Source: a virus
Lineage: Duplodnaviria > Caudoviricetes
Virus record (IMG/VR): IMGVR_UViG_3300046318_000318
Reading direction: 5' to 3' (one strand)
Length of the DNA: 64,000 nt
Below are positions 2,476-48,164 of this stretch, in pieces. Position 1 is the first letter of the stretch. The number at the start of each line of letters is the position of its first letter. The notes under the pieces were generated by a model that saw only the letters and a program-made list of their open reading frames with translations, was not told the DNA's origin and did no database searches. The position numbers and the translations under genes are program-made.

Positions 2476-4023
2476 TCATATCATGTTTGGATAGTGTAGC
2501 TCATTGATGGAAGCTACCTTAGGCTGATACAAAAGCTTTCGATTACGGTGATAACCTACTTGCTTAGGGATCTGTAAGCAATACAGGTAGTAGAACTTAA
2601 CATCTCTGTCTTTCAACTCTCTCAGTCTACCTAACGCTTGAAGATTAGATACAGGACTGTCTACGGAGACAGACATGATCGCCACTCTTAGATTAGGTAT
2701 ATCGATAGCCGTACCACCAGACTGGATCGTAGTGACTCTTATGTCAGCTTCGATCACATTCTCATAAGGGTCGTCTTCCACATACCTTCGCACATCCAGA
2801 TCAGGAAACTCTTCTTTCAAATGTTTGGTATACTCAGTACACATATCTATACTGGCACAAAAGACAACGAGTTTATCGTTTTCCATCTTACCAGATATAT
2901 ACGTGTCCTTAACCAACCTCGTAAGCATCATGAAGTAGTTATCTCTCTTCATGGTATTCTTAGTTATACTTTTCTCAAACTCTATATGGCTGTAGTTATT
3001 ACTACCAAAAGGTGAGGTTCGTATTTTAGAGGCGTTGAAATTAGAGATCTCATAGCTGATAGGGAACAGCTTGATGTATTTCTTCATTTCGATTTTGTCG
3101 AAACGGATCTGTTTAGGGAAGATGAGACTATACATCCTCTTTAGAAACGGATCTTCAGATACCAGGGTAGCTGTTAGAAATACCAAGTTGTGGATATGCA
3201 TGTGCGTTAGCGCTCTGAATACTGCATGAAAGTGCTGGTGACCTTCATCGACAATCATCGTACCTGCCTTGATCGTTCTTGCAAAGTCACAAGGTTTGCA
3301 CTCATACCCACTCATCTCAAATTCATCTACGGATCCAGAATATGCTTCTAGGTAGTACATGAATGTAGTCAAACTACAGATGATAAACTTACTGGTAAGC
3401 TGTCCATCTGCGGCTAAGGATATCAAACCCTTTAGCTGATCACCACCTTGTACGGTCATGATCTCTTTGGGCTTAACATTAACCACAGCTACTATTTCCT
3501 CAGCCCACTTTTCTATGTACTTAGGTAGAACAAGTACAAATACTCGCTCACCCATGTTCACAGCCGTGGCTAAAGAACTTATACCTTTACCTGTACCTGT
3601 CGGTAAAGACACCAATCTGCTGTTGAAATCACCTTCGTACTTGGCAGAGCAGAATTGCACCACCTCGTTTTGATAATCTCTAAGTTCCCAACCTGGGTTG
3701 AGTTTTAGATCTACTTTAGTAGCTTCATAGGAATCCGCTACTGTAACTTCATACATGCTGTCATCAAAGTGTTCATAAGCAAGAAGCTTCAGAAACTCTG
3801 AGTATTGAGCTATGTGAAATCTAAACTCTGTGCTGGCTTTGTTCTTCCAAGCATATGTCTTCTGTACTGTGTTTTGTTTATTCCCTATTTTCACATAGTT
3901 GATTTGAACAAACTTAACACAGAACTTAAGCAACATAGCCAAAGCTCTGGGTGTAGGGAAAGTGACGCTGAATGAATGTGTGTATTTGGTTACATGGAAG
4001 TGTTTGGGTATATCGATTTGCAT
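2476..4023 (-). CDS. superfamily 2 (DExH) helicase
   Basis: Walker A LPTGTGKG, motif II VDEGH, motif III LTAT, motif VI QALGRLR; follows the beta-prime gene as in phiKZ-like phages. Confidence 0.9.
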   Translation of the reverse strand: MQIDIPKHFHVTKYTHSFSVTFPTPRALAMLLKFCVKFVQINYVKIGNKQNTVQKTYAWKNKASTEFRFHIAQYSEFLKLLAYEHFDDSMYEVTVADSYEATKVDLKLNPGWELRDYQNEVVQFCSAKYEGDFNSRLVSLPTGTGKGISSLATAVNMGERVFVLVLPKYIEKWAEEIVAVVNVKPKEIMTVQGGDQLKGLISLAADGQLTSKFIICSLTTFMYYLEAYSGSVDEFEMSGYECKPCDFARTIKAGTMIVDEGHQHFHAVFRALTHMHIHNLVFLTATLVSEDPFLKRMYSLIFPKQIRFDKIEMKKYIKLFPISYEISNFNASKIRTSPFGSNNYSHIEFEKSITKNTMKRDNYFMMLTRLVKDTYISGKMENDKLVVFCASIDMCTEYTKHLKEEFPDLDVRRYVEDDPYENVIEADIRVTTIQSGGTAIDIPNLRVAIMSVSVDSPVSNLQALGRLRELKDRDVKFYYLYCLQIPKQVGYHRNRKLLYQPKVASINELHYPNMI

Positions 4024-6085: not shown

Positions 6086-9000
6086 TTATTCTTCCACGTA
6101 CTTGGTTTTAAATCCGGTACAGGTGAACATGTGGTTGATGATCTGTATGGGTTTCGTGTTACCGTAAGTAACCAGATTCCTATCCACGATCTCTTTGATA
6201 TCAGAAGGTTTCTCAGCATCCAAGATGTTCCTTGCCATATGGCGCTGAACAAGAGGGTTACCAGATCTATCCAACATCTCAGCCACAGCTTCCCGACCAC
6301 AATACCCCACAAACAAACGACCCTCAGTCTCACCGATGGTCCTGACCGGTGTGTTGCGATAAGGTCTTGCATGCTTTTCACGACGGTTGACCTGAGCCAA
6401 CAATCCATGCAACTGAAGGTTGCCTGTGCTCACAGCTGTCCAGTCGTCAGCGATCTTTTCCAACAGCATCATGTACAGAGGAGCGATCCTTACATTTCTT
6501 TCCGTAGTCACCATTTCACCAGAATTACCACGATAGGTTACCTTACCGTAGACTGGTTTGTAAGGAGACGCCTCTATCCTTTTGACGATCTCTTTGGATG
6601 AGAGCTGTTTGTCAATAGGCACATAGGCATACGCATGGTTAGAGATGATACTGACCATGTGCTCAGCCTGACTCTCTGGTGTTACCATACTTGCGTAGTA
6701 CATGGCTTGTTTGTCTGAGAACAACTTATAGAAGTCCACGACATACTGATGCACGGCTTGTATCTTTTGGATATCGTGCTTAGCCAGTAACTGTTCTGCT
6801 GTCACAGCTGTGGGTGTCAATCGCTCATATCCAAATTGTTGTCTGACGTGCTGGGTGATGTCCCTCAGCGTAGCACTCATGTGCTGTTCATACAACCTAC
6901 CTAAGTTCATGCGGGAGATAGTAGATGCTGCGTCCATCACCACATCCGCACGATTGCCATTTTCGTCCACTGGCATGTTCTCAGGTTCCTCAGTTTTTAC
7001 AACTACGCCTTTCTTATTGTCCAGTAAAGTCGCTCAGCTTCACAGCTTACTCTCTTTACCCGGTGTGCTAAGACACCCGCCTGTACTTTCATACAGGAAC
7101 AGACTATATCTTCATCCTTCCTTTCGGTTAGGATGTCTCCCATTTCGAATCTTGCTAAGATCCTACGCCTTACGGCTAGTCGTTGGCCACACCCCATGTA
7201 AGTATATATGTACATACTTAGTTAGGAGCTTCGGTGCGGATTGCCCATATATCTTTATTAGTTTTACCTTACCTGTGTGATTAGCACAGCCGTTAACTCA
7301 TTTTCATGGTTAAGTTGGTCAATAAAGTTTTGGGGGTTCCCCGGCAATTAGAGAGATTTTTTGTATTTACATTACTGTAAATAGGTGGCAGGATTTTATA
7401 TTTCATTGGTAGTTACCAGACTTATTTCGATGTGTCGATCTAGCTAAGTCTAAAGATATTCTCTGGCCAGGTGGTAAATCCAGTCAGATATCTTAAAATG
7501 TAGTTCTCATATGGGATTTCATGATTATCATCCAAAAGCTCTATGACTTTATTTTGGTCTAGCTTAGTTTGATTTATAAAATCTTGAAAATTCCATACGG
7601 TTTGTTTACGCTCAGTGACATTGTAAACAATTATATCGAAAGTGTTGAACAACGTTTCCTTAAAACCTAAACCGCGAAGTAGTCTTGTTTTAAACTTCTC
7701 ACGGTCTATATTTAGTTGTCTTATCCACTCTTCAATAGGTTGTATTATATCACCGTACTTGACGTTTTGATGGTAGTATCTTACATTCACCATTTGCTCT
7801 CTTGGATTACTCCATTTACAATTAGCTTTGTAATAACCCTTATCGCCGTCTATTCTGTCGAGCGTTGTGTTGTCCGGTCTTGGACCCATATCGTCGTAAA
7901 AGTGCTTGAATGACTTAAGCCAGCTTTCACATATGGTGATCCCGCGTTCACCGTAAAGATGGTATTTTATGTTATTTTTATTAGTGCAACGCTGGATCAT
8001 ATTCTCCCAAGTAGAATATTCCCTGCTTTGCCATAAACCATGCTTTGTTTTATTAGCCTGACGGTAACACCCACAACTTTTATTTGTAGGTCTTTTCAAT
8101 AGAGGTAGACATATATTTTTAATTACGCCGCAATCACACTGGCATTTAAAAATACGCCCGCTCTTACCCATCGGAGCTTCTTCGAGAACTGTTAACATAT
8201 TGAAACGTTGTCCAATATCAATCTTGCTTCTGCTCATTTCATACTCACCTCTTTCTTTTAAATGATTTCAAATCGACACATCTGAAATCTAGGTTGTTGT
8301 TCTACCAATGAACTATAAATTTTTATTTACCACCATGATTATCGGTTAACTTAAACCCTTCGCATGGCTCTATGGTGTACTCAATCACAAACTGGATTTG
8401 ATATTCGTCAACAGATGTTTTCCGTGATTGGAGTTGCAGTGGTTGTTTAAAGCTACTGCTGTTGTGATTGGTTTGCACCATGGCTTCACAGACAAGCTTG
8501 TCAAACTTAGGTGTAGTCAAGATCTCATTTGTGCCAAACTTTGTTCTGTTGTCCTTGCGAAGAGAAATTTCCAGATCGATCACTTTCTTGTAAAAAGATT
8601 GATTGGCCTCATGGTACCTGTTTAGGTAGTGAGACATCTCCACCGGCATATTCTTAACAGGTGCGTTATTGCGAATGACTTTGACATCCACCACCACTCC
8701 ACCCCCACCTCGTACGTAGACAGCTTCGTCAAACATGTGGTCGACTTCCATCAGATCGATACGGGACATCTCTACAGGCGAAAGAGATGTGTTGAAATCT
8801 CTGAACGCCATGAGAATACCATCTTCACGGATCTTGTCACCAATCTCTGGGAAAGGTTTGACCTCGTTGATGGTACCGTAAAGGTTGAGCGGGAATTGTT
8901 TACTACCGAAGTTGACCACTCGGGTGTCATAGATCTTGAACTTAAGCTTAGGCAGAAAGTCCTTAGAGACCATAATACCGTCCTCAGCCACAGACGGAAT

Positions 9001-9513
9001 AGACATCAAAGCGATGTTAGCGTTGATGCCAAACATGAAGTTACCGTTGTCAGAGACAGCTGGCGTGTCCGCAAAGATTGTGTCTTTTTGGATGTAAGCA
9101 CCTGGCTGAAGCTTACCGATGTTCTTCTTGTTAACTTTGTACTTAAAGCCAAAGTTCTGATGGTATTGGGCTTTGTACGGAATGACCAGATAGTCTATCT
9201 GTTTGTTATCTTCACGTTCAAAGAACACATAAGTCTCTGGATTGAAGTTCAAAGACTTGTTACCGATACCTCTTGGGTAGCGATCCATGATGGCGATGAT
9301 GCGGCCATCTTCAGGCATCTTTACGTTAAAGGTATACTTACCGAACTCTTGTTCAAGCCCAGTCTGTACCAGTTTCTCTTGAGCGCCGTCGATCACCAGA
9401 CGCTGACCGATATGTGAAGAGAACATAACTGCTCGTGAGGAGCTGTTATGTGCACAGTAGGCATTCAGACCTTGAATACCTACGAATTCCAGTTTCAGTT
9501 CATTCTTTTGCAT
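6086..9513 (-). CDS. nvRNAP beta subunit, C-terminal part (phiKZ gp71-73-like); spliced exons 9513-8329 and 7012-6086, about 703 aa
   Basis: joining the exons restores GFKLTDNHGG|KGVV (compare GDKxxxRHGxKGV); also SRMNLG and TIGETEGR; the junction is in frame. Confidence 0.9.
7013..8328 (-). mobile_element. group I intron (1316 nt) with an HNH endonuclease ORF in the P1 loop
   Basis: 5' exon GGUGGU pairs with IGS GCCACC (7384-7389) with a terminal U.G; P AAUUGCCGGGG, Q AAUCCGCA, R GCCAACGACUA, S AAGAUAUAGUC; ends in omega-G at 7013. Confidence 0.93.
7440..8237 (-). CDS. intron-encoded HNH-family homing endonuclease
   Basis: EYSTWENMIQRC...GERGITIC...TLDRIDGDKGY...NCKWS pattern of phage HNH endonucleases; AT-rich; inside the intron. 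Confidence 0.88.
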   Translation of the reverse strand: MSRSKIDIGQRFNMLTVLEEAPMGKSGRIFKCQCDCGVIKNICLPLLKRPTNKSCGCYRQANKTKHGLWQSREYSTWENMIQRCTNKNNIKYHLYGERGITICESWLKSFKHFYDDMGPRPDNTTLDRIDGDKGYYKANCKWSNPREQMVNVRYYHQNVKYGDIIQPIEEWIRQLNIDREKFKTRLLRGLGFKETLFNTFDIIVYNVTERKQTVWNFQDFINQTKLDQNKVIELLDDNHEIPYENYILRYLTGFTTWPENIFRLS

Positions 9514-10003
9514 GATTGCTCCTTATGGTGGATATGATCCAGTGTGGTACTTTTGATGGAAGAGACCAGTGAGCAAACTTAAGTTTTTCACCGATGTAGA
9601 AGGATCTATAAGCTTGAACAAGGTCGTCTTGCTTATATTTGTCTGGCATACAAAGAGGTATGGGGGTTCTTTCTTTCTTTGTGATTTTCTCAGGTGGTAT
9701 GGATAACCTACTCTGTAATAACAGGTGAGTCAAATGTTGTTTACCGTAGCGTTCTTCGTATTCTTCTGCCATGCAGCAGAAATACTCATAGTGCCACAGA
9801 TAGTTACCTATGCTTTCTCTTGTCCAGATGGTGGATGGGTGATTAACATGGGCGGCTTTGTAAAGACCGTCTGTGTAATCTGATTCGAGTTGGTGAGCTG
9901 TGGATAACATCTGACCAGACTCAAGAACCATCTTTACGACATGTTCATTGCATAGGTATCTAGCAGAAACCTTAGGATCTAAGTCCAATAAGAATATGTT
10001 CAT
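9500..10003 (-). CDS. denV: pyrimidine-dimer DNA glycosylase (T4 endonuclease V-like family)
   Basis: MNIFLLD...HVVKMVLESGQMLSTAH...HVNHPSTIW...YRSFY signature. Confidence 0.75.
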   Translation of the reverse strand: MNIFLLDLDPKVSARYLCNEHVVKMVLESGQMLSTAHQLESDYTDGLYKAAHVNHPSTIWTRESIGNYLWHYEYFCCMAEEYEERYGKQHLTHLLLQSRLSIPPEKITKKERTPIPLCMPDKYKQDDLVQAYRSFYIGEKLKFAHWSLPSKVPHWIISTIRSNHAKE

Positions 10004-10078
10004 GTTTAGACTTTGATGGATGATACAGTCAAATAGAATATATGTGGTCTAGATGGTATAGACACAGGAACATAAACC

Positions 10079-10402
10079 ATGGACATCCTAAAACAAATCC
10101 CTAATCTAGAATCTTTCTTTTTTGAGAAAGACTTCATTAACACTTTGGAATCCCACCTGACTTACTTAAGAAGTAAGAACACCAAAGTAAAAACTATCAC
10201 TACTCATCTTCTAGATAAGTACAGTGGTGACTTCTATGGGTTGTTAGATGAACTCAACATACCTAAACAGTATCATTATGCTGTCATGAGGGTGAATGGG
10301 TTCGATAACAGTGATAATTATAGATCTACCATTACTGCTATTATCATACCTGATTTCAGTGAGATAGAGTCTATTAAAGATATCTATCGTACAAAAAAAT
10401 AA
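10079..10402 (+). CDS. hypothetical protein
   Basis: 107-aa ORF with SD (AGGA), on the opposite strand, ending at a convergent terminator. Confidence 0.8.
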   Translation: MDILKQIPNLESFFFEKDFINTLESHLTYLRSKNTKVKTITTHLLDKYSGDFYGLLDELNIPKQYHYAVMRVNGFDNSDNYRSTITAIIIPDFSEIESIKDIYRTKK

Positions 10403-10420
10403 CCCATAGGCTGTTATATG

Positions 10421-10447
10421 TCCAGAGTCCCTTGTGGGGACTCTGGA
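10421..10447. terminator. bidirectional terminator hairpin
   Basis: TCCAGAGTCCC-ttgtg-GGGACTCTGGA. Confidence 0.7.
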
Positions 10448-10463
10448 TTTTTAACCCGAGTTA

Positions 10464-11801
10464 TCAGTAGTATCCGGTTCCTGGATACCTAACGTTTCCA
10501 GCCATGGCAGGTTGCGGCCAGCCATTTTGCGGGGACGCTATCTGTTGTTGCTGCATAGGTTGTTGAAACTGCGGTGGGTAACCATGCATCTGCTGCTGCA
10601 TCGGCATCTGTTGAGGATGTCCTTGCATAGGCATTTGCATAGGTCGACCATAGCTGTCATACACAACACCCATAGGCTGCATGGGCATTTGCTGCATAGG
10701 CATGGGTTGCACAGGACGCCCATATGGATCGTAGGCCATAGGCATTTGCTGAGGTACAAATTGACCGTTACTTTGAGTAGCTTGCTCAAAGCTGACTTTA
10801 CCATTCTTATTAGCCGGAGCTTGTGGCTTTGGCTGTTGGACTGGCATTGTGCTCATCTGAGGCATCATCTGAACAGCTGTCTGTGTAGACTCTGGCTCAG
10901 TTGGTGCTTTGGGTGTCAGACTTCCGTCACTTCCATACTGCACAGGAATGCGCAATATTTCAGCTTTCAGAGAGTCAATATCCCGCATAGCGTCAAGCCA
11001 ATCAGATGCAAACATGCATTGCTCATTCTCGTCGATGTAATCTTTGTAGATCTCAACGAGGTCATTGATGCGTGCAGTTATCTTGGCTGAACCAAACATC
11101 AACACATCCAGATAAGGAATAGTGCTGTTATTGCTACCGTAGTTATAACTCTCTTGCTTCTCCAGATCAGGAAAGACAAACTCAAACATCTTCTGAAGAC
11201 ATTCTTTGTCCTTGATGCGCAGGTGATCAACAGGAAGTCCGTTAGGAGTTTCTTTCTCTTTGGTCAGTTGCTCATAGAACGGGAATGACACCACAGATAC
11301 CCGAGTACAGCGCTTGCCTTGGTAAGACGCACCGCGATTCAGATAAAGAGACACAAAGCCTTTGTCAGGCTTGTTCTTCACTGCATGTGTCATGATTTTG
11401 ACAAAGTTTGTCAAAGTCTTCATGTCAGCATCCATACCCATGTTGAACAACTCAGCTTGCTGAGGGTTCATTTGGTTATGAAGGTCTGGACTGGCCAGAA
11501 TGTTGATCAGAGTCTGAAGCAGGTAACATGTCGAGATATTGATCTTCGTCATGATCTTCTGTTTCAGCAGGCTGATCACAACAGACTCACCTTTAAAGAT
11601 GTTCTCCGCCATGGGGTGAAAGATCATCTTTTCACTGGGATTGAAGTTCCTCAACTGTTGATCATAAGGCATCACCAGTTGCTTTCCTTCAATCAGGATC
11701 GATTCATTACCTGACCCGTAGGCATTCTTAATGAACCCACTCTTGTCTACCTTCATGGTGGCGTATTCAAGAATGGCTTCGTAAACATCCAACAGTTTCA
11801 T
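10464..11801 (-). CDS. conserved core protein (position of phiKZ gp70) with a Q/M/P-rich low-complexity tail
   Basis: 445 aa; synteny between the PicA-like gene and the beta gene; tail of QQMPM/YDPYGRP repeats. Confidence 0.75.
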   Translation of the reverse strand: MKLLDVYEAILEYATMKVDKSGFIKNAYGSGNESILIEGKQLVMPYDQQLRNFNPSEKMIFHPMAENIFKGESVVISLLKQKIMTKINISTCYLLQTLINILASPDLHNQMNPQQAELFNMGMDADMKTLTNFVKIMTHAVKNKPDKGFVSLYLNRGASYQGKRCTRVSVVSFPFYEQLTKEKETPNGLPVDHLRIKDKECLQKMFEFVFPDLEKQESYNYGSNNSTIPYLDVLMFGSAKITARINDLVEIYKDYIDENEQCMFASDWLDAMRDIDSLKAEILRIPVQYGSDGSLTPKAPTEPESTQTAVQMMPQMSTMPVQQPKPQAPANKNGKVSFEQATQSNGQFVPQQMPMAYDPYGRPVQPMPMQQMPMQPMGVVYDSYGRPMQMPMQGHPQQMPMQQQMHGYPPQFQQPMQQQQIASPQNGWPQPAMAGNVRYPGTGYY

Positions 11802-11811
11802 TTTGTTACCT

Positions 11812-13266
11812 TTAAACTATGTTGTTGATGACGGACTGCTGAGATGGTGCGTAGGTTTGTTCAACCACTTTGAACATCTGCTCAAAGTTGTGAACGTTGT
11901 GGTCAAACACTTGGTTGTTAGGAGCCAATACAGGAGCCAACAACCCATCACAGAACGAAGGTGTTACATACATGATGGCAGGACCACCGTCGATACTCAC
12001 GTTGATTTTGGTTTCGCCAAAGATGTTGACGTCCATTTCAAGTGTGTACAGTTGCTGTCCACCATACGAGATATCAGAGAATACCTCAGTATCCAGACGG
12101 TTCTTAAATGTCTGGAAAGCCTGGGTCATGTCTGCTGACGTCACAGAAGAACCACCAATAAGAGTGGTGTGTACTTGTCCCATACTGCTATGGTTTGTAC
12201 TCATGAATGTTACCTTTGAGATGAAAAGTGACATCATGATAGCCGGCACTGCATTAGACAACATGGTCGCCACCACAGTTTCACGGTTGGCTGAGTTCCA
12301 GTACTCGCTTTGACCAGATTGATGAACAGCTGCTTGATGGGTGTTACCCAGTCGCAGCATGTTGGTCATAGCCACAGTGTTGCTGTCCAGTTTGATCAGA
12401 TCGCCATAGTTGAACGTCGTCGCCAAAGGCATGCCGCGAATCTGACTGATAGCCCGAATAAACGGATTCTCAGAAATCATCGTGTCCAGAGCAATCTGTG
12501 TACCCCTTGAGTAGATATCAACATCAGACTGGCCAAAGTCAGCCAGTGCGTATGCTTGACGATGAGTGTCGAACACTTTGCTGATGAACTGACCTGGTAG
12601 ATTGTTCTCACGGTTAGACCCAATAGGTTCAGTACCCAACCGCAAACGCCCATCGTTGTATCCGATTCCAGGTTCAAGATAGGAATGCGCATTTTGAATG
12701 TAACCAGATTGGATGCCTGTGAAGACTTCCTGTGGTCGCATCTTGTGTACGCCTTTGTTCACGCTGTTGGGTTCCGGGTTGATGATCTGAGAACTCTGAG
12801 TTACCAAGTCTTTACTTGTATAACCCATAGGTGTCAATTGCTCAACACGATTGACACGAATGAAACTGTTCAGGACAAAGACCATGTTAGGATCGATGTT
12901 ACCATTTGCAGTTACACCCAGGGTGTCTGTAAACCCTTGGAAGTAGTACACACACAGACTACCCGTGTTAGACACTGTGTGGATTTCCAGAATAAACCTG
13001 ATGCGTTTCTCAGTCCACCCATATGGAATATGGATCACATCGCCTGGTGTGGCACTGGGAGCCATGATGGTACTTGCGATACCACCTAACAGATTCCCAG
13101 TGATGTTACCGTTACCGACCTGTTGCAGTCGGTTACCGATAGCGTTCATTGTATCCCCACTTACGTGGGTCATGTAAGGACGCTGATGTACGGGATTGTA
13201 AGTCCCAGTCTCTTGCATGGTGAGTTTCGCAACTCTTATGGTTTGTTTCATGGCACTTTGCATCAT
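11812..13266 (-). CDS. picA: probable phage-nucleus import factor PicA/Imp1 (phiKZ gp69-like)
   Basis: 484 aa directly after the gp68-like gene; assigned by gene order and size, not by a motif. Confidence 0.6.
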   Translation of the reverse strand: MMQSAMKQTIRVAKLTMQETGTYNPVHQRPYMTHVSGDTMNAIGNRLQQVGNGNITGNLLGGIASTIMAPSATPGDVIHIPYGWTEKRIRFILEIHTVSNTGSLCVYYFQGFTDTLGVTANGNIDPNMVFVLNSFIRVNRVEQLTPMGYTSKDLVTQSSQIINPEPNSVNKGVHKMRPQEVFTGIQSGYIQNAHSYLEPGIGYNDGRLRLGTEPIGSNRENNLPGQFISKVFDTHRQAYALADFGQSDVDIYSRGTQIALDTMISENPFIRAISQIRGMPLATTFNYGDLIKLDSNTVAMTNMLRLGNTHQAAVHQSGQSEYWNSANRETVVATMLSNAVPAIMMSLFISKVTFMSTNHSSMGQVHTTLIGGSSVTSADMTQAFQTFKNRLDTEVFSDISYGGQQLYTLEMDVNIFGETKINVSIDGGPAIMYVTPSFCDGLLAPVLAPNNQVFDHNVHNFEQMFKVVEQTYAPSQQSVINNIV

Positions 13267-14813
13267 AACCAGTTCCTTTCGCCCAACTCAATGAGCAGTT
13301 TTGCAAGATCTGACCTTATGTCAGGTTTAATAACAAACACCCTACTCGTATTGCCAAGAGTTTCTCTCAGCCAACGATCTTCTGCTGTAGGTACCCAGCT
13401 GTGAGACACAAGGTCTGCAACAACTTGATCAACAGCTTCCAGGGCGTAGTTGGATACTTTGCCTGTAGACACACGACCGATAGGTTTGCTGAAAGGATAC
13501 AACAGCTCAATCTTATCGGAAAGTTCTTTAGGGATTCTGTCCTTAGAACTTTGTGGTGCCAATACGTATTCATCGTTGGAGTATCTTGGATAAGACGTAA
13601 CCAACAAAGATAAATACTTGTGTCCTCGTGCCCACAAGACACTTTGAAGAACACCAAGCAGTTGTATAATGATATCTCGATTCAAGTACGAGATACCTCT
13701 TGGTGAGATCACAGGTTTCATGACCCATGATAACAACAGCACTTGCACATCAGTGACCTGATGCGGTTGTAACAATTGACAAGTCCTCTGTGCTGAATTA
13801 AAAATGTCTTCTGACATCAGGGACGTTAGTCGAGTAGCTACATACGGCAGATCTTCTACCGAGTATTCCAACTCTACCACCTCACCCAACGACAAGTTGG
13901 TTTTCATTCGGTAGCGCTCAAGCACAGTTCCTTTGTTCTCACGACCGATGTCGTCCAGTTTGTTCTTCTGGATTCTATTGGCATGATCCGCATCAGGACT
14001 GCGAATACGCTGCATCAAGAACTTGTACAAATATTTGACAATATCTTGTTTGGGGTCTTTTGGATTGTTACCAGAGATATCTCCGATACAGAGCTTCTTG
14101 ACCACAGTCAAAGACAACAGCCACTGAGGATAGTCTTCAGTAGACAACACATTCATCAACTTCTCACTGTCGTCTTTTGACTGATTCATGAGGTTTGAAA
14201 TATATGTTCTCAGCTTCTGTACTGCCAGAGAGTTGTTGATCTCTGAATACTTCAGCAGCATGTATGCATGGAACTCTTTGTAGTAGTTACCATACGACCT
14301 GCGTGTTGAAGAGATATACTCACCCCAGATAGGGATCATGGACCTCAGAGCTAAGGACAAAGCCACCAGCTCCAGATAGTCTGACCTTGTGTAAGTCTTT
14401 TCTCTTGTAGAGTTGTTATCCATGTTAGGTACATACTCAGGCAAGAATGTCTGAGGTACCATCACACCAGAACTAAAAGACAACCACATCTGTACTTCAG
14501 ACAGCTTATGGTAAGACAACAGCTCAGCTACTGCCTTAGAGAGATTTTCATTCATATCACCCACGGTGTAGGATGAATTAATGATCTCCCTTACATTCTC
14601 ATACACCTGAAAGATCCCGTCTTGAACAGGATCGTCCAGTTGCGACCAATAAAAGTTCAGATAATGGAAGACGTCATTGCTGAGTCCGTCATCGTCACCT
14701 TCCTCGATCATGGCACCTTTTCCAAATACGGATACTTGGAATTCTACCACTTTACCCTTGTGCTCAATAATAGCTTTTGGCGATTGTTGAGCTATGCTTG
14801 TAGTTATCCTCAT
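13263..14813 (-). CDS. probable nvRNAP fifth (sigma-like) subunit, phiKZ gp68-like
   Basis: 516 aa, helical; position in the conserved core block. Confidence 0.62.
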   Translation of the reverse strand: MRITTSIAQQSPKAIIEHKGKVVEFQVSVFGKGAMIEEGDDDGLSNDVFHYLNFYWSQLDDPVQDGIFQVYENVREIINSSYTVGDMNENLSKAVAELLSYHKLSEVQMWLSFSSGVMVPQTFLPEYVPNMDNNSTREKTYTRSDYLELVALSLALRSMIPIWGEYISSTRRSYGNYYKEFHAYMLLKYSEINNSLAVQKLRTYISNLMNQSKDDSEKLMNVLSTEDYPQWLLSLTVVKKLCIGDISGNNPKDPKQDIVKYLYKFLMQRIRSPDADHANRIQKNKLDDIGRENKGTVLERYRMKTNLSLGEVVELEYSVEDLPYVATRLTSLMSEDIFNSAQRTCQLLQPHQVTDVQVLLLSWVMKPVISPRGISYLNRDIIIQLLGVLQSVLWARGHKYLSLLVTSYPRYSNDEYVLAPQSSKDRIPKELSDKIELLYPFSKPIGRVSTGKVSNYALEAVDQVVADLVSHSWVPTAEDRWLRETLGNTSRVFVIKPDIRSDLAKLLIELGERNWL

Positions 14814-14877
14814 GTTGACACTTTCGTTAAAAGAATTTGAACCTAAGCTCAGATAAAGTAAATGTTACTTAAAACAT

Positions 14878-14910
14878 CTAGACAGGCCCTTCGAAAGAGG
14901 GCCTGTCTAG
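14878..14910 (-). terminator. intrinsic terminator
   Basis: CTAGACAGGCCCT...AGGGCCTGTCTAG 13-bp stem. Confidence 0.75.
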
Positions 14911-14912
14911 TA

Positions 14913-15584
14913 TTAGAATGTCAAATCGTCAAAGTCCATGACTGGTTTAGCTGCTGCTTTTTGTTCGAAAGGTTTCTTAGCCTGGTAAGCACCAGGTGCA
15001 TTCTTATCGTAAGGCGGTTTATACACATTCACGTTCTGTGTATAGATGTTACGCAAAGCACGAATAGTAGCTGCTGCGTGTAGGCACGAAGCCTCTGATT
15101 CTGAAAGCTGTGTACCATCTGACCGATATACCTTGTGGAAATCAGACAACCGGAACGTAAACTTCAGCCTTGGGCGAGTCTCACTCTCGACAGAGATCAC
15201 AGACAACCAAGCCATACCTTGGTCATCCTTACCAAAGAAGAGTTTGGAGTTGGTGACCTTTGGTGCGTCCGGTGTCCGATCAGCTGGATTATCCGATCTT
15301 GGATAGGATAGCATGTCGATAGACATCTTCTTGTTGTTTTCCCCTTTGACGATTTCTTCAAAGAGATCTAGGAACAAGAAGAACGTCTCAGGATTCATAG
15401 GGGCTGTGATAGCCCCGCGTCCATCTTTATCACCAGGATCATTGGTCCAAATCGTGATCCTTGGGTTGCCATCACGAATAGCCCAAACCAACCTACTCCT
15501 TCGAGTAGCGTTGTTTGGATTGGGTGTAAACATCATGAACTTTGAGAGTTCATTAATTTTTGGTGGTTCTGATACGGTTGTCAT
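14913..15584 (-). CDS. chmC: probable ChmC-like nucleic-acid-binding protein
   Basis: 223 aa just upstream of the gp68-like gene (synteny); beta-rich core, disordered tail ending MDFDDLTF. Confidence 0.5.
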   Translation of the reverse strand: MTTVSEPPKINELSKFMMFTPNPNNATRRSRLVWAIRDGNPRITIWTNDPGDKDGRGAITAPMNPETFFLFLDLFEEIVKGENNKKMSIDMLSYPRSDNPADRTPDAPKVTNSKLFFGKDDQGMAWLSVISVESETRPRLKFTFRLSDFHKVYRSDGTQLSESEASCLHAAATIRALRNIYTQNVNVYKPPYDKNAPGAYQAKKPFEQKAAAKPVMDFDDLTF

Positions 15585-15635
15585 TGTGTTCCTAGTGGGT
15601 GGAGTTCATCATACATTATATACGAAAAATAATTT

Positions 15636-16493
15636 TTAGAGTTGAGCTAACATCCTAGCTACCATGGGTTCTGGAATGTCAGTGGATAAATCCATAACTA
15701 CTTTGGCTTTGGTCGTCATGGAAGTCCAACCTCTTTTAATAGATACATCGTAGACTTGTTGACGTATCTTAATAAGAGCAGGTTGAAACAGCACGCGATC
15801 ACCAAACACCATCAGAAGTTTACTCAGGAAAGGAAGATGTTTCATATCTCTTTCCCCAAGTGGGTAATACTTAGAATTCCATTCATATCTGGGTTTGAGT
15901 TTACCAGTATGACTTTCAAGTAAATCCAATCGACTGAGTTTCTCGTGTGAGAGCAGATCCCAAGGTACGTGGGATAAAATCAAAGCCCTCGTGCTATGAG
16001 GAGCTTTGATATAATCTTTGAACTTTTGAACATCTGGGCTGTCTTTGAATTTACCAAGCGTCTTTACAAGGATAGCTTTTTCATGTTTCTGAATGTCTGT
16101 TTTATCAGCTCTCAGTTCCACGATAGCTGACTTGGCTTTGGAAACAGCCTTGTCATACTCCATGATGTAAAAGACAGGAGTGGCAGTACCACCGCCTTCT
16201 ACTTTAAATAAACTTTGGATAAGTTCGATTTCTTGCTGGATAACTTCGGCAAAATCATCAGCCGTGGCTTGTAACTTAACTTCTTTATCTACAGACCCAA
16301 GTATGTTTCTGTAGAGTGTTGAAAGATTGACAAAACAGGAGTTGTAATTACTCAGTATGACCTGATTGGGTATTTCTCTTTCAGGATCATAAGGAGTCTG
16401 TCTTCCTGCAAAGACAGACTCAAAAGCCAGAGACGTACCTATGCTTAGTGGAAAAGCACTGATGTCTCTGTTAAATAAAGGGTTCATAGTCAC
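15636..16493 (-). CDS. conserved hypothetical protein, possibly PIN/FEN-like nuclease fold
   Basis: 285 aa; overlaps the nuclease gene; weak resemblance only (FVNLSTLYRN, ILSHVPWDL). Confidence 0.45.
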   Translation of the reverse strand: MTMNPLFNRDISAFPLSIGTSLAFESVFAGRQTPYDPEREIPNQVILSNYNSCFVNLSTLYRNILGSVDKEVKLQATADDFAEVIQQEIELIQSLFKVEGGGTATPVFYIMEYDKAVSKAKSAIVELRADKTDIQKHEKAILVKTLGKFKDSPDVQKFKDYIKAPHSTRALILSHVPWDLLSHEKLSRLDLLESHTGKLKPRYEWNSKYYPLGERDMKHLPFLSKLLMVFGDRVLFQPALIKIRQQVYDVSIKRGWTSMTTKAKVVMDLSTDIPEPMVARMLAQL

Positions 16494-17641
16494 CTCATGT
16501 TGGTAAGTGTGTTGGTCATGATTGTGTTAAATATGGTCTGTTGAGCGGTGTTAAGACTATGCTTTTTTTGGATCTCGTCAAATAACAAAGTTGTTATGTT
16601 AGATCTTTCTATTTGCACAGAGCTGTACTCCATCCCCAATAAGTCATTGATATACTCATTATGAACAGCTTCTTCTTCATCCTCTAAGCTTTTTTTACTT
16701 AGGTGATAGAGAGGATACCTGAGTTTCAATTCCTCAAAGGCTTGATAAACACCGTGATCTTTACGGGCCTTAATTCTAATATATGAGTTTATAGGAATCT
16801 TTAAGAGCTGTTTGTCTATGGATTCTAAACATCTATCCACATCAGCTAACTTAAGAGTGATTGTTTTGAAGATCTTGGCTTTTTTATTCTCTAGAAAGAA
16901 GAACTTATTACCATCATCAGGATCCAATATCATCAACATAGCACCCTTGGGTTCTTCTTCCCCGTGAGTAAGTCTATCAAAAGAACCTTGAGCTAAGATT
17001 CTTTCGTATGTCGAGTGGGTGTGGATATGTCCTATATTGATAAAGTACTTGACTAACTCAAGATAAGATAACTCATCATGTTTACTGGTGGTCTTACCCA
17101 CACCAGGTAACTGATAGTTAAACAAACCATGCATGATAGCTATATCCACAGTTTTCAACTGCATCTCAGCCATCAAAGTCTTTACCTGATCTAAAGTTTC
17201 TTGTGTTGTGGCAGCCCATTCATCAGGCACATAAAGAACGTGTATGTCATGTTTCTCCATGTACTCTATAGAAAGAATGTCTATGTATTTGAAATCACCA
17301 GGTGTCTGCGATATCTTCCAAACAGTTTCTGCTTGAGACGATTGATTCCAATCATGACTGGGCGTACCTTTCAGGATCCTCAGTGAGATGTTCTCTCTAG
17401 AGCAAAATCTAGATAGTCTATCCAACCACAGTTTGATAAGGTGCGTATTCTCATCATCCATGTCTAGTAATCTGTCAAACAAATCACCAGCTATGAAGAT
17501 GATATCTAGTTTACAATGATCGCTTTTAGGGCTATAGTCTTCAAAGAAAGTATCTAGATTTGCAATAATTTCCTCTGTTGGGTTATTCTTACTACCCAGA
17601 TGTACATCACTGAGAACTAAATACCTTAAACGTTCAGTCAT
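16490..17641 (-). CDS. Mre11/SbcD-like metallophosphoesterase nuclease
   Basis: SDVHLG, AGDLFD, GTPSHD, MHG and GHIH calcineurin-like motifs. Confidence 0.88.
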   Translation of the reverse strand: MTERLRYLVLSDVHLGSKNNPTEEIIANLDTFFEDYSPKSDHCKLDIIFIAGDLFDRLLDMDDENTHLIKLWLDRLSRFCSRENISLRILKGTPSHDWNQSSQAETVWKISQTPGDFKYIDILSIEYMEKHDIHVLYVPDEWAATTQETLDQVKTLMAEMQLKTVDIAIMHGLFNYQLPGVGKTTSKHDELSYLELVKYFINIGHIHTHSTYERILAQGSFDRLTHGEEEPKGAMLMILDPDDGNKFFFLENKKAKIFKTITLKLADVDRCLESIDKQLLKIPINSYIRIKARKDHGVYQAFEELKLRYPLYHLSKKSLEDEEEAVHNEYINDLLGMEYSSVQIERSNITTLLFDEIQKKHSLNTAQQTIFNTIMTNTLTNMR

Positions 17642-18161
17642 AGATCAGATCGTCTTTGTCATCATTATTAGTTACAGATCCTGAGTTTTCAGTCTTTGAA
17701 CCTAAGTTATACCTAGTAAGGATGCCTTCCCAATCTTTTTGCGCCTGGGTTAAAGGCACTTCGGTATAACCATCAGACTTATGCTCAAGAGCTTTAGCTA
17801 AAAAGTTATTGGCTACTTGAGGTAGGTTGTTGTTATACAGCTCATACTGACTGAAGATCTCCCGCATGGTTTTACCTTGCAGCATAGTCACCATGCCTGT
17901 GTCATAAAGAGCAGGCACTCTGAACAATACTTCGTTGTTATTACCGATGACATCTACAGGTGCCATGGGGTTACCAGCCACACTTACCCATTCGGCAAAG
18001 ACAGGTTGCGAAACAGTCGGAGTTTTCTCACCGGAGAAATAAGGTAGGAAGTACTGTGAGAAGATCTTCTCTGGTAGTTTAGCGACAGGGGTTTCACTAA
18101 CCAAAGTTTTATAGCTTTGATCTATGTTGTTCTGCAATTCTTGTTTAACGTCTTTATCCAT
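17634..18161 (-). CDS. conserved hypothetical protein
   Basis: 175-aa ORF coupled to its neighbours. Confidence 0.8.
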   Translation of the reverse strand: MDKDVKQELQNNIDQSYKTLVSETPVAKLPEKIFSQYFLPYFSGEKTPTVSQPVFAEWVSVAGNPMAPVDVIGNNNEVLFRVPALYDTGMVTMLQGKTMREIFSQYELYNNNLPQVANNFLAKALEHKSDGYTEVPLTQAQKDWEGILTRYNLGSKTENSGSVTNNDDKDDLIYD

Positions 18162-18165
18162 GTTG

Positions 18166-18573
18166 TCACCCGTTATTGATAGATATGATTTTGCTGATGG
18201 TTGTGTTGGTATACTCTACCATTTTACCTAAGGTATAAGTAGTACCTACTGTGTCTGTAAAGTTAATAAATAAACTTAAACTAACAGAACTGGAACCTGT
18301 TGCTGTAAGACTGTCATCTACTTCCACAACAACATTTTCAAAAAACTTACTGAAGTATTTAGCCAAAACAGATTCTAAAGACCTGATTGTAGCGGGTATG
18401 TCACCTTGGTTGGTATGGAGTATGTAAGAAAAAGAAGTTACACCTTCTGGAAAAGTGTAAGATTGACTGTGGTCAGAAGCAAAGAAATGTGAAAACAAAT
18501 AGTCTGCTGTTTTCAAACTGCCTGTGACCCAGCCGTCTGTGCTCAGACTAGGCATAGTGGCTGAAGAACTCAT
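18166..18573 (-). CDS. conserved hypothetical protein
   Basis: 135-aa ORF with SD (GAGG). Confidence 0.8.
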   Translation of the reverse strand: MSSSATMPSLSTDGWVTGSLKTADYLFSHFFASDHSQSYTFPEGVTSFSYILHTNQGDIPATIRSLESVLAKYFSKFFENVVVEVDDSLTATGSSSVSLSLFINFTDTVGTTYTLGKMVEYTNTTISKIISINNG

Positions 18574-18661
18574 ACGGGCCTCTTAAAGGTAAAAGATCAT
18601 ACCATACTACCAGCCGGTGAAAAAAGAAATACCCAGCTTTGGCCGGGTATTTCTTTATGTA

Positions 18662-19285
18662 TCACTCACCAAAGATATCGGTAGGGTCACGACCCTCAGC
18701 CAAGATCTGTTGGATCTTATCCCATGTCAACAATATATCGTGACGTTCTTCTGTTGAAAGATCTTGATGACCTTCAAATAGTTCATCACAATACTGTTTA
18801 GCCACCCACTCATACTTACCATCCACTTCAATGTCCTGGACCACACCATCCATCACCCTGCGGTAATAGTAGTGCTGATCATTACTTTGCTTAGGATCGA
18901 TATCGATATAAGTGTCGCTGTAGCCATTGACGAGTTGTCTATGGTACATGTTTCGAAGGTCCGGCTGTGCCATGATGTAGTTTTGCATCATGGGTGTAGC
19001 GCTTCTCATACCTTCGATGTCATCTATCTGGATAATGACGTTAGGTTGATATAACCCACCGGCATGTCTGATAGCAGCTTTAGCTATCCTGATAGCTGTG
19101 TTATCATGGATTCTTGCATACAACTCTTTAGCACCTTGCATAAATCTTTGACCAGTTTCAGTCAGCGCATTACTGAACGACTGCATTTGGTTTTGGAAAT
19201 ACTGCAAAGTGCTTGGAGATTGATTTGGGAATGCAAGGTAATCAAAAGCCAAAGGTGAAGCTTCGATCACATTGATTTGATACAT
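18662..19285 (-). CDS. conserved hypothetical protein (probable start MYQINV at 19285)
   Basis: ATG overlaps the stop of the spliced beta-prime gene (TAATG). Confidence 0.8.
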   Translation of the reverse strand: MYQINVIEASPLAFDYLAFPNQSPSTLQYFQNQMQSFSNALTETGQRFMQGAKELYARIHDNTAIRIAKAAIRHAGGLYQPNVIIQIDDIEGMRSATPMMQNYIMAQPDLRNMYHRQLVNGYSDTYIDIDPKQSNDQHYYYRRVMDGVVQDIEVDGKYEWVAKQYCDELFEGHQDLSTEERHDILLTWDKIQQILAEGRDPTDIFGE

Positions 19286-22200
19286 TAACTCTCCAACCAA
19301 GATGAGATTGTTGCAATATTAGGCTTTGGGATACTTACGTTACCTGAAACCTGGAACGGCTTAGTCATCTGAAATATGTTAAACTCTGGTGAGAGAGGAT
19401 ACCACATATTAGACATCTTTTCGTCAAGTGAGATAGAGACATTGAGAGCGTCCATAACTACCTCACTCTAGCTTTAACTAAGTTCGCTAAACTTATTGAT
19501 CTTGCTTAAGGATCCTGATACTTTCATATCAGATTAGACTATATCTTCATCTTTCGATGCTCTTCGTTTCCACTCGCTTGAGTGTACTCCCATGTGGGAT
19601 AGTCGTTGACCACACTCCATGTAAGTATATATGTCTATACTTAGTTAGGAGCTTCGGTGCGGATTGCCCAATCCTTGTATCTTTTACCATACCCAGATAG
19701 TTACTCTGGCCACTGCATATATTTCTATCGCAGTTTGGTGCACAAGGCTCTAAGGAGTTTCCCGCAATTAGAAGAGTTTAAACGACGGCAACACTCTACC
19801 GTCAAAATCAGCATTTGGCTTATTGTCCAGTAAAGTCGCTCAGCTTCACAGCTTACCCTCTTTACCCGGTGCGCTTACACACCCACCTGTACTTTCATAC
19901 AGGAACAGATCATATCTTCATCCTTATTAAAGGATGCTCTCCGCTTCTTCCCTGCTTAGGGCTTTACTCGGTCGCAACTCCGATGATCGTTGAACTTTAC
20001 GCATGGTTGATAAGAATCAACTTTAGCGTCTTAGCTGCTGATTACCCAATTCTTATATTTTTCAAACTATCACGCTCATCGTTTCCGATCACGTTGTAGT
20101 ATATAAGACTCTAAAGGACTTCCCAGCAATTCAAAGAGATAACTTAGTCAATTACTCAACTAAGTGCCTTATCTCATCATTATTAAAATACAATGTCAAT
20201 CGCCACACACCGCCTATCAATGCTTTTCTTCTAGCTATTGTAGGGATATATTGTCTAGCATACCCAAATTGCTGACTAATATCTATAGGACTTGTTATAA
20301 TCCTAGTTTCGCCAGTTTCAACGTTTTCGATAAAATATCCGTTACCCCTAAAAGATCTTTTATCGAGACATAATTGTTTAAAGTACCTCAGCTCCTTATC
20401 GGTAAGATCTTTAAACTGTCCGTTGAAACTAAATTGCCAACCTTTAATCGGAATGTTCTTTAATCTTTTATTTTTAATAGATAGTTGAACACCCCATGAA
20501 ACACCAGTTATTTTCTCACAAGCTGCCAGCGATTCAAATTTACGTTCTTTGCGTGTGAATATATTTCTAGCAGTAACTGGTATTTTTATTTGTAAATCTT
20601 CTAAGGATGGTTTTTCCTGAGGCCATGGTCTTGCATCTAATTTTCGTTTGAAACATAATCCGTCTGAATAGATTTTAATATCGGAAGATCTAAGTCTGAC
20701 GGACACGGTTAGTTCAGAATATCCAAGTTTCAGAGAGCAATCCCTAGCACTTTTATATTCAGTCACCTCATCCGTGATTATGTTTTTAACAAGTATTGCT
20801 GAACCATACCTGAATTGATCGTACTCATTTTCTAAATTTTCATAATTTTTCCATTCTTTTAATTCAGATAGCCATTGAAACTGCATGTAATTTTCCCAAA
20901 GTTTACAACCGGGTTTTGTTTTTAACCGATGGTAAAGTAAATCATTACTCAAGCCTAATGCAATTGCGCATTGCGTCGGGTTATCATAAATAGTGATTTC
21001 ATTGGTTTTAACATTTCTAGTTATGACGTCTATGGTATACTTTTTCTCATTTTCAAGAATTCTATTTACTTTTTCATCAGATCTATCACAATTCGAATAA
21101 ATGACATTTCCTCTAGGTGTCACCCATTCTAAATTATCTAAGGTGTCAAAGCCAGGTATCTCATTTTTATGATTTACGTACAGCGATTCAACGTTTCTAG
21201 GATAATCTAGCCATGCTAAGCACATAGCTCTGTGTCTGAAAAATTTGTAAGATGTATTCTCATTAAGGGAAACATCAGGAATACCTGAATAGGAATGGTA
21301 ACCATCTCTATCACAAAAAGCTTTTTTATCCACACCAGTTATCAAATTTCTAACTTTTCCTTCCTTTGTTATACCATATCTTGTAAAACCAGGAATATAA
21401 GCATGATCTTTGTGTACTGGATGTGATAAACCAACTGGAAATTTCCAAATCAAGTTGCTAGGATGAGAGTTATTAAAATCACCGTCCTCGAACATCAAGT
21501 GTAATAAATGCACTTGACTTTCATGAACGTGAACGGGCTTAAAAGCCGAAGCTATGATAAACTCTATTGGATATAGACCAGGACCTCTTATCCAATCTAA
21601 GAAAATCAAAGTGCTTCCTGTTTCAGTTGAGATACACTCAATCTGAATGTTCTCTCGCGATATGACATCACCTTCTGAGTTAACAGAATAACGACCGTCA
21701 GACCAGGGTAGCGAAAGATAGTTTTGGGTTTGTAAATATTTACTAAGCATATATCCTTTCTATATAGAAAGGTATGCTAAACGGCGATTGACAATAATGA
21801 TAAGAATTAAGCGCGCACTGTTAAAATGTGCATTCCAATAGTGAGGTCATTTGGGTTCTTTTTGAACTTAGTAATCTTCACTCGTTGAGCCGACCCCTGC
21901 AAAAGGCTCGGATTTCTTTGGAGACATACATACAAACCTTTATCAGGCGCTTCGTCTATCAGCTCCTGCATAAACCTTTCTAACAAGGGGTGGTGTTTGT
22001 TAGTATGTTTGTATAGGAAACCAATAGAGTCATTCAGACCCATGCCGTAACGCCGCAGCTTATTCAACATGTGGATACGGTAAGCTGTGGTGGCCATACA
22101 CCAAGGAGCTTCTATTTCATCATACTCTTTACCCGCTGTAATAGAGATGATAACTGCTCGGAATGAGAAGTTGGTTCTGGCTCCGAACATGTGTTTCCTG

Positions 22201-23051
22201 AAGTGACCGTGCTTATGAGCCATCAACAACAGGGTGTCGTTGTAGAAATCACAAAGCATGATCAAGGACTTAACTGTTCGGTTTTGCTTGGTCTTACTTG
22301 TCTGATCGTAAAAGTCTCTGTCAATAGACACCATCGTGTTGACAGCATTCACAGCCTTCATAATGGAAGGATCTGTGTATGTGCCTAGCGGTTGTGTATC
22401 AAAGATCAGGACTATCTTGTTCGGCAAAGGCAGATACTCACTGAAAATTATCTTACGATAGTCTTTTAGCAAGGATTGAAGATAGTCTATCCTCTCACTC
22501 TTAAGCTCGAACTTCTGAGTCTTAGGTGCAAACTCAGTCATGGAGAAGAGAGTATCCATGATGTAATCGAAATTAGTCACAAAGTAATTGTAACCGCGCT
22601 CGATATTGCACGTCATCAGTTTGGTCAGCACTTTGTCAGGTGTTTTAGCTGCTGTCGTATAGCTTGTGTTACAAAGCCATTCGATCACAGAGAACCCTGA
22701 TTTGGTAAACCTCTTGATGAGCATCATGAAAACCACAGGAGAAATAAGCTTCTCTACCCCTACTGGTTGTTTGAGCCAGATGACTGGTTCGATATCTGAC
22801 ACAACTGAAGCTTTAACTTCAGTGTGACAGACTGGACAGATAGTACTCTTAGAATATTCACCTTTGGTATGTCCACATTGACAACTGGGAATCAGACTGA
22901 TCTGATCACTAGAGAGATGTGTGGTAAGTTTCTCTTTGACAGCCTCACGTTCTTCAAGCGTAGAACACGCCATGTGGTTGATGAGGGTGGGGGTATGACG
23001 TAATGTATAAAACATCTCGTCGTAGTTAACCAGTTCTTGGATAACAGGCAT
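19285..23051 (-). CDS. nvRNAP beta-prime subunit, N-terminal catalytic part (phiKZ gp55-like); exons 23051-21810, 19818-19798, 19452-19285; about 476 aa
   Basis: Zn ribbon CQCG...CPVC, FRKHMFGARTNFSFRAVI, QRNPSL; splicing gives ILTVRA|PNADFDG|DALN, restoring the catalytic NADFDGD. Confidence 0.93.
19453..19797 (-). mobile_element. ORF-less group I intron (345 nt) splitting NADFDG|D
   Basis: P1 GACGGU|...GCCGUC with U.G; P AAUUGCGGGAA, Q AAUCCGCA, R GUCAACGACUA, S AAGAUAUAGUC; omega-G at 19453. Confidence 0.94.
19819..21809 (-). mobile_element. group I intron (1991 nt) with an endonuclease ORF in an extended P1 loop
   Basis: P AAUUGCUGGGAA, R GUUCAACGAUCA and S AAGAUAUGAUC (compensated P7 GAUCA/UGAUC); 3' end ...GGACAAUAAG identical to the beta intron; in-frame stop right after the 5' splice site. 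Confidence 0.9.
20152..21750 (-). CDS. intron-encoded homing endonuclease (NUMOD4-HNH type, duplicated N-terminal module, C-terminal repeats)
   Basis: HRAMCLAW...VNHKN...DNLEWVT HNH; an earlier degenerate copy (FEDGDFNNSHPSNLIW); NUMOD1-like repeats YDNPTQCA, YKSARDCS, FESLAACE. Confidence 0.85.
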   Translation of the reverse strand: MLSKYLQTQNYLSLPWSDGRYSVNSEGDVISRENIQIECISTETGSTLIFLDWIRGPGLYPIEFIIASAFKPVHVHESQVHLLHLMFEDGDFNNSHPSNLIWKFPVGLSHPVHKDHAYIPGFTRYGITKEGKVRNLITGVDKKAFCDRDGYHSYSGIPDVSLNENTSYKFFRHRAMCLAWLDYPRNVESLYVNHKNEIPGFDTLDNLEWVTPRGNVIYSNCDRSDEKVNRILENEKKYTIDVITRNVKTNEITIYDNPTQCAIALGLSNDLLYHRLKTKPGCKLWENYMQFQWLSELKEWKNYENLENEYDQFRYGSAILVKNIITDEVTEYKSARDCSLKLGYSELTVSVRLRSSDIKIYSDGLCFKRKLDARPWPQEKPSLEDLQIKIPVTARNIFTRKERKFESLAACEKITGVSWGVQLSIKNKRLKNIPIKGWQFSFNGQFKDLTDKELRYFKQLCLDKRSFRGNGYFIENVETGETRIITSPIDISQQFGYARQYIPTIARRKALIGGVWRLTLYFNNDEIRHLVE

Positions 23052-48162: not shown

Positions 48163-48164
48163 GA

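Follow-up and report, generated by a model that had tools for sequence, protein, structure and literature searches.

In a 64,000-nt stretch of viral DNA (IMG/VR record IMGVR_UViG_3300046318_000318; in the following, the window), two group I introns are inserted into the genes for the beta and beta-prime subunits of a non-virion RNA polymerase (nvRNAP), and each carries an HNH endonuclease gene in its P1 loop. Both introns and their host genes are encoded on the minus strand. Folding, shuffling and covariation support what a preliminary description of the window had proposed, i.e., that a long-range extension of P1 loops out both endonuclease genes and delivers the guide to the 5' splice site. 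Judged by these comparisons, the helices are real, conserved and under selection. Since both a chimallin gene and split nvRNAP genes are found, gene content marks the source as a nucleus-forming jumbo phage (Chimalliviridae). We consider it fairly probable that both elements are mobile group I introns in which a conflict between endonuclease production and splicing is avoided and not used as a switch.

Pairing across the endonuclease genes

With regard to the beta intron, the proximal helix 8319-8302/7395-7412 comprises 17 bp with one G.A mismatch (-18.2 kcal/mol), and the distal helix 8282-8272/7429-7439 is perfect (-15.8 kcal/mol). The guide (7389-7384) binds the end of the exon such that U8329.G7389 forms at the splice site (pairing probability p 0.99), which confirms the earlier placement of this guide. 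In the beta-prime intron, an 11-bp perfect helix (21793-21783/20194-20204) stands next to a 12-bp helix that includes one G.U pair (21805-21794/20172-20183). The preliminary description had named two pairings per intron; all four are present with high probability in full-length folding, while a third beta-prime helix (21782-21774/20253-20261, p ~0.98) had been overlooked. In the ensemble folding of whole introns with flanks, the named pairs mostly show p 0.83-1.0, with two terminal A-U pairs at 0.67-0.74.

We also compared the duplex energies with those of 500 dinucleotide shuffles, using intron sequence only and pairing the 5' leader with the 100 nt before the core. The beta duplex reaches -49.8 kcal/mol (shuffled mean -21.8) and the beta-prime duplex -43.7 kcal/mol (shuffled mean -22.2); in both cases 0/500 shuffles are as good. 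The best control windows inside the open reading frames (ORFs) reach -29.5 kcal/mol for beta and -25.6 kcal/mol for beta-prime. Shuffles and ORF-window controls thus reject chance pairing as the source of the helices.

The beta-prime endonuclease ORF ends with WRLTLYFNNDEIRHLVE, and its last 53 nt make up the P1 3' strands, the guide and half of P2. That is, the 3' strands (20172-20204) and the guide (20168-20164) are the last endonuclease codons, as described before. P1 proper is weak in this intron, given a C.A mismatch and a productive register of p ~0.4 (U21810.G20168 p 0.39). Related loci that we compared are given as L-numbers (L006, L011, L016, L018, L019, L025, L049, L052, L053, L058 and L059, the latter being phiKZ). 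L025, a close relative whose protein is 77% identical, holds an ORF-less sister intron at the beta-prime site with an identical guide in a perfect short hairpin, which fixes the register of the beta-prime guide. This comparison suggests that the beta-prime extension may compensate for distance and a weak guide.

All three nvRNAP introns, i.e., these two and a second beta-prime intron, score above the gathering score of Rfam RF00028 (81, 68.7 and 83.7 bits). Excising 8328..7013 yields the junction HGG/KGV and an open beta frame of 703 aa. Excising 21809..19819 and 19797..19453 joins LTVRA-PNADFDG-DALN, such that the catalytic NADFDGD is rebuilt within a 476-aa frame. Both endonuclease introns finish with ...ACAAUAAG and a terminal G, splicing restores the host frame, and uninterrupted alleles are known among relatives. 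With regard to P10 pairing with the 3' exon, just 3 bp are plausible in beta and none is evident in beta-prime intron 1. In the respects that can be tested on sequence, the window introns look like mobile group I introns with an HNH homing endonuclease, for which splicing and cutting are predicted.

Related introns and covariation

At the beta site, related phages either lack an intron, have one without an ORF or carry an HNH gene within the P1 loop. The last arrangement is found in L018, L019, L058, L049, L052, L053, phiKZ gp72, FBPa36 and phiKp_32. Among the ORF-less introns, that of L011 has a short P1 hairpin, and that of L016 keeps a long P1 stem with a 14-nt closing loop. A few P1-stem bases of L016 (3555-3625) match the end codons of the L018 HNH gene; the intron resembles what loss of an endonuclease gene would leave behind. 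The closest relative, L006, has an ORF-less intron (3590-3962) 3 bases upstream of the beta site (HG/GK, not HGG/K of the window); these are thus two different introns at neighbouring positions.

In L018, L019 and L058, the coding 3' strand D-G-W-T/I-F-T is paired with a non-coding 5' strand at 19/19 positions each. Between them, four changes are two-sided, all at third codon positions (synonymous), and seven affect one side only, creating or removing a G.U pair; phiKZ is not part of this count. Neither these helices nor that of the phiKZ gp72 intron, which has a 14-bp extension and an identical splice site, have any sequence in common with the window helices. Given that the HNH family differs as well (phrog_374 in the window), long-range closure has been rebuilt for different genes.

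One might read the extensions as dispensable relics of gene insertion, with the short guide pairing being sufficient. This would fit the 12/19 related P1-loop introns without a significant long extension as well as L016, which retained its long stem though there is no gene to loop out. On the other hand, changes in a non-coding strand that compensate for those at synonymous codon positions need ongoing selection, and the beta site holds two unrelated endonucleases, each closed by its own unrelated helix. Furthermore, a second strain is unchanged in 20272-20013 but shows 22 changes over the upstream 1007 nt (p 0.07 when only the 121 coding nt are counted). We thus regard the relic explanation as very improbable.

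In phiKZ (gp56, gp179) and PhiPA3 (gp210), genes related to that of the beta-prime enzyme start just past the upstream exon and end beside the P element, which places them in the P1 loop. The same placement is observed for relatives in Goslar, HPP-Temi and Serratia, Vibrio, Klebsiella and Shewanella phages. The P1-loop layout is common in this phage family; the relatives were chosen by protein similarity and are hence biased to the beta-prime enzyme family. An HNH match in PA7 was left out because no ribozyme core follows it.

Endonuclease translation and splicing

The preliminary description had further inferred that ribosomes finishing the endonuclease ORFs would melt P1, such that translation and splicing compete. 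The geometry for this is valid in beta-prime only. In beta, the endonuclease stop codon (7442-7440) merely abuts the distal helix, the 3' strands are entirely non-coding, and the stop precedes the proximal helix by 27 nt and the guide by 50 nt. Since ribosomes unwind RNA for roughly 11-15 nt ahead of them at termination, one that finishes here would touch only the distal 11-bp helix. For beta-prime, a hairpin over the ribosome binding site (RBS) and ribosome-free transcription would limit the proposed competition, whose principle had already been established for I-TevI (PMC3073962).

The AUG of the beta-prime endonuclease has an unpaired probability of 0.01 in the nascent RNA, and opening its start region costs 14.6 kcal/mol compared to 7.1 +/- 4.0 for 45 window genes. 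The lower (5') arm of the hairpin (21778-21746) is shared with the third long-range helix, such that the two compete. For 22 endonuclease starts the mean opening cost is 11.5 compared to 7.1 kcal/mol, with 14/22 above the 90th percentile of the controls. A general rule that an ORF overlapping the guide always has an RBS hairpin was rejected, given counter-examples both ways (Yong, L052, L053).

In both introns, the stop codon of the interrupted host gene is found at intron positions +1 to +6: the in-frame beta stop (8325-8323) falls within the intron, and the stop of beta-prime exon 1 occupies positions +1 to +3. Ribosomes would thus cross the P1 5' strand regardless. In other phages, ribosomes crossing into the 5' end of an intron are reported to aid splicing (PMC3073962).

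In chimalliviruses, a membrane vesicle is the site of early transcription, that of the nvRNAP genes included, and the phage nucleus is the site of later transcription; both compartments are ribosome-free (PMC12908238). Transcription apart from ribosomes would leave time to fold and splice. In phiKZ RNA-seq (source data of PMC12571901), RNA of the intron outlasts that of the exon about five-fold: in both control replicates, gp72/gp71 climbs from 0.9 at 5 min to 5 at 30 min, while gp56/gp55 goes up from 1.9 to 3.5 and 11.9. No internal start site is reported for phiKZ gp72 or gp179 (PMC12676376). The simplest reading of a rising intron/exon ratio without internal start is a stable excised intron that is usable as endonuclease message. 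For the intron of 201phi2-1, only two spliced reads are reported (PMC11512511).

In the mechanism that we favour, the HNH gene sits in the P1 loop of an ordinary mobile group I intron. The non-coding intron 5' end has evolved to pair with the sequence just before the guide, as folding and covariation show. This pairing loops out the gene of 0.8-1.6 kb and keeps the guide at the 5' splice site, presumably as a requirement of splicing. Translation of the beta-prime precursor would melt P1 and would be kept low by the RBS hairpin; in beta, the endonuclease gene simply ends upstream of P1. If the phage behaves like its family and phiKZ, its RNA would be made away from ribosomes, in the phage nucleus or the early vesicle, and could fold and splice first. 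Going by the same phiKZ data, the endonuclease is then probably translated mainly from the excised, longer-lived intron.

A different outcome is expected if the precursor reaches the cytoplasm unspliced. In this case, ribosomes finishing the endonuclease would melt P1, and endonuclease output would trade off against RNA polymerase. The beta-prime ORF reaches across the 3' strand and the guide into P2, half of which it covers; its P1 proper is weak (p ~0.4), and in 12/22 introns the endonuclease stop is no more than 30 nt from the P element or past it. The effect is also proven for I-TevI after hairpin removal, and spliced phiKZ reads have not been seen. We nevertheless consider such a trade-off unlikely, given the RBS hairpin in beta-prime, the 50 nt that separate the beta stop from the guide further downstream and exceed the reach of a terminating ribosome, the ribosome-free transcription and the phiKZ intron RNA that outlasts exon RNA.

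The competition between hairpin and third helix relates to yet another idea: closure of the long helix could free the endonuclease start, such that translation is licensed only after the intron is complete and folded. The third beta-prime helix takes the 5' arm of the hairpin, and adding the 3' strand lowers the opening cost from 12.2 to 7.8 kcal/mol in beta-prime, from 15.0 to 8.3 in L018, from 12.3 to 8.1 in L019 and from 14.0 to 11.8 in Kp32, while adding unrelated ORF windows instead leaves it unchanged on average. In contrast, the sign is opposite for phiKZ179 (8.7 to 16.6) as well as for the virion RNA polymerase (vRNAP) intron of Kp32, PA3 gp210, HPP-Temi and L049. For phiKZ gp72 and window beta, the 3' strand does not change the opening cost, and the Shine-Dalgarno of window beta-prime stays paired after helix closure. 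A general switch of this kind was rejected because no consistent sign is found over the 22 introns, and we rate the coupling to folding as highly doubtful for the window.

Both ideas can be combined such that, in nucleus-forming phages, the extended P1 is a two-way coupler of splicing and endonuclease translation, i.e., the precursor exits the compartment unspliced, closure loosens the start, and ribosome traffic sets the level of the RNA polymerase subunit. We consider this quite unlikely. If true, it would explain both the missing spliced phiKZ reads and why silencing of gp72 blocks the phage despite the gene being deletable.

Several observations weigh against avoidance of the conflict as we propose it. 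An I-TevI-like RBS hairpin on the precursor is present in beta-prime, but the beta start is open (4.6 kcal/mol), and the hairpin statistic of p 2e-5 is overstated since related sequences from other genomes are compared with one control genome. A long extension is significant in 7/19 other P1-loop introns, with the remaining 12 showing a shorter or no clear extension, such that a strong extension is not universally needed. Long-read data of phiKZ show no spliced reads for its introns (PMC10914365); the precursor may thus be abundant in the cytoplasm. Finally, our model does not explain that phiKZ gp72 is deletable despite the phenotype of an RBS-directed oligomer.

In these phiKZ experiments, an antisense oligomer on the gp72 RBS blocks the phage, while an oligomer on the gp72 AUG is without effect. 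The target (L059 687-697) is inside the intron and starts one base past the extended P1. The explanation that the oligomer acts by breaking the extended P1 is unsupported, since blocking the target in the model favours P1 (7% to 94%). It may be the splicing of gp71-73, or the stability or decay of the precursor, that is affected.

Genomic setting and known systems

The host genes are the equivalents of phiKZ gp71-73 (beta) and gp55-56.1 (beta-prime). Their features are listed in Table 1 together with the chimallin gene; a divergent family B DNA polymerase is also encoded in the window. A DNA-level search of named phages gave no close relative of the window.

Table 1. Positions of the intron, exon and endonuclease features and of the chimallin gene within the window.
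Feature	Position	Strand	Basis
nvRNAP beta C-terminal subunit (phiKZ gp71-like), exon 1, end ...DNHGG	8329..9513	-	PHROG 3295 E 2e-112
Beta group I intron, 1316 nt, G at end	7013..8328	-	Rfam RF00028 81 bits at 7407-7080; frame restored
Proximal P1 extension, 5' strand	8302..8319	-	pairs with 7395-7412, p 0.67-1.0
Distal P1 extension, 5' strand	8272..8282	-	11 bp perfect with 7429-7439
Beta endonuclease Shine-Dalgarno, largely open	8246..8251	-	opening cost 4.6 kcal/mol vs window mean 7.1
HNH-type endonuclease, 265 aa, P1 loop	7440..8237	-	phrog_374 E 3e-55; intact frame
Distal helix 3' strand, non-coding	7429..7439	-	pairing with 8272-8282
Proximal helix 3' strand, non-coding	7395..7412	-	pairing with 8302-8319
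Beta internal guide sequence	7384..7389	-	G7389 pairs with U8329, p 0.99-1.0
Beta exon 2 (gp73-like), start KGVVV	6086..7012	-	Pfam RNA_pol_Rpb2_6; no interruption in 14 related loci
nvRNAP beta-prime N-terminal subunit (gp55-like), exon 1, end ...LTVRA	21810..23051	-	PHROG 2987 E 1e-115
Beta-prime group I intron 1, 1991 nt	19819..21809	-	Rfam RF00028 68.7 bits at 20196-19886
Extended P1 5' strand, 3 helices (12, 11, 9 bp)	21774..21805	-	folding
Hairpin over endonuclease Shine-Dalgarno (21760-21754) and AUG	21746..21778	-	folding
HNH endonuclease, 532 aa, phiKZ gp179/PhiPA3 gp210 relative, P1 loop	20152..21750	-	phrog_59 E 9e-15
Coding 3' strands of the two main beta-prime helices, 10-nt bulge	20172..20204	-	pairing and ORF
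Beta-prime intron 1 guide (codons R-H)	20164..20168	-	G20168 pairs with U21810; one C.A mismatch
Micro-exon, 21 nt, PNADFDG	19798..19818	-	spliced protein LTVRA-PNADFDG-DALN
Beta-prime intron 2 (345 nt) without ORF, short P1 hairpin of the ordinary kind	19453..19797	-	Rfam 83.7 bits
Beta-prime exon 3 (gp56.1-like)	19285..19452	-	spliced frame
Chimallin (phage nucleus shell) gene	23196..25064	-	Pfam PF25677 E 1e-34

The beta ribozyme is a mosaic, i.e., its 3' domain is near-identical to beta-prime intron 1 and its middle to intron 2 (7250-7013 vs 19905-19819 and 19670-19598, minus strand). That the beta endonuclease is a chimera with the beta-prime enzyme was rejected, as there is no similarity between the two. 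In L025, the beta-prime gene holds four ORF-less introns, and an extra intron splits NADFDGD into micro-exons of 12 nt (PNAD, 5959-5970) and 9 nt (FDG, 6310-6318).

Further group I introns are observed in tRNA genes on the minus strand. A tRNA-Leu(UAA) is interrupted by a 222-nt intron (50329-50108) just past the D-stem (~position 25/26) and not in the anticodon loop; after in silico excision, the tRNA is accepted by ARAGORN. One literature search gave nothing on an intron at this site. An HNH gene (50867-50367) is located directly upstream of this tRNA-Leu, outside of the intron. Two adjacent tRNA genes have introns in the anticodon loop (37517-37289 and 37200-36967). The tRNA-Arg(UCU) intron (229 nt) is below the Rfam gathering score and its spliced tRNA is accepted, while the spliced form of a CAU tRNA-like gene (234-nt intron) is not accepted by ARAGORN. 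The regions around the tRNA genes (~35700-38700 and 47970-50100, minus strand) hold almost no ORF >90 aa and may contain further non-coding RNAs or decayed genes.

Introns with endonucleases in these host genes are known from phiKZ and PhiPA3 (PMC11620839, PMC10914365). The phiKZ gp72 intron resembles that of window beta in its site (HGG/K) and in the HNH gene in the P1 loop. Its coding 3' strand and RBS hairpin are features that it shares with window beta-prime, whereas the phrog_374 gene of window beta stops before P1. Both the HNH family and the helix sequences of window beta are unrelated to their phiKZ/PhiPA3 counterparts. The beta-prime enzyme, in contrast, is a relative of phiKZ gp179 and PhiPA3 gp210 (tblastn 2e-29 for PHIKZ179 and 2e-16 for gp210), and the window adds the second beta-prime intron and the 21-nt micro-exon. 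Cutting of an intron-less allele near the insertion site has been demonstrated only with the relative gp210 (PMC11620839).

As in beta-prime, the ORF end of I-TevI in the T4 td intron overlaps a splicing structure and a hairpin hides the RBS (Gibb and Edgell 2010, reviewed in PMC3073962). Early I-TevI translation, with ribosomes entering the overlap, harms splicing (PMC3073962). However, I-TevI is a GIY-YIG enzyme in the P6 loop and overlaps P6a/P7, while the window enzymes are of HNH type, located in P1 and found in a nucleus-forming phage. I-TevI is released from repression by a late promoter within its hairpin. In a search for an internal late promoter, sigma-70 matches were at chance level, using a model that is unsuited to phage polymerases.

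Endonuclease genes in P1 are also found in the Synechocystis PCC 6803 tRNA-fMet intron (I-Ssp6803I), with a P1/P2 overlap of 61 nt compared to 53 nt in beta-prime, and in the Physarum large-subunit (LSU) intron (I-PpoI), with a 0-nt overlap as in the beta intron (PMC3073962). Unlike the window introns, these two encode other nuclease families and reside in non-coding host RNAs. The principle, i.e., ORF overlap with P1, an RBS hairpin and translation that blocks splicing, is thus already known from PMC3073962. The RNA architecture and covariation of these jumbo-phage introns were not found in the searchable literature on P1-loop or extended-P1 phage introns, and Yakunina 2015 does not mention introns.

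The analysis provides predicted splice sites at nucleotide level, together with P1 structures, for an intron class that is studied as inter-phage weapons (phiKZ gp72, gp179, PhiPA3 gp210). In the covariation, a non-coding strand tracks synonymous codon positions, which makes it a clean natural example of the dual constraint on protein and RNA that 'core creep' predicts. Furthermore, the introns offer a simple system for asking where a nucleus-forming phage splices its RNA. They also call for caution, since the effects of antisense oligomers or insertions seen for these endonuclease genes may really stem from altered splicing of the surrounding polymerase genes.

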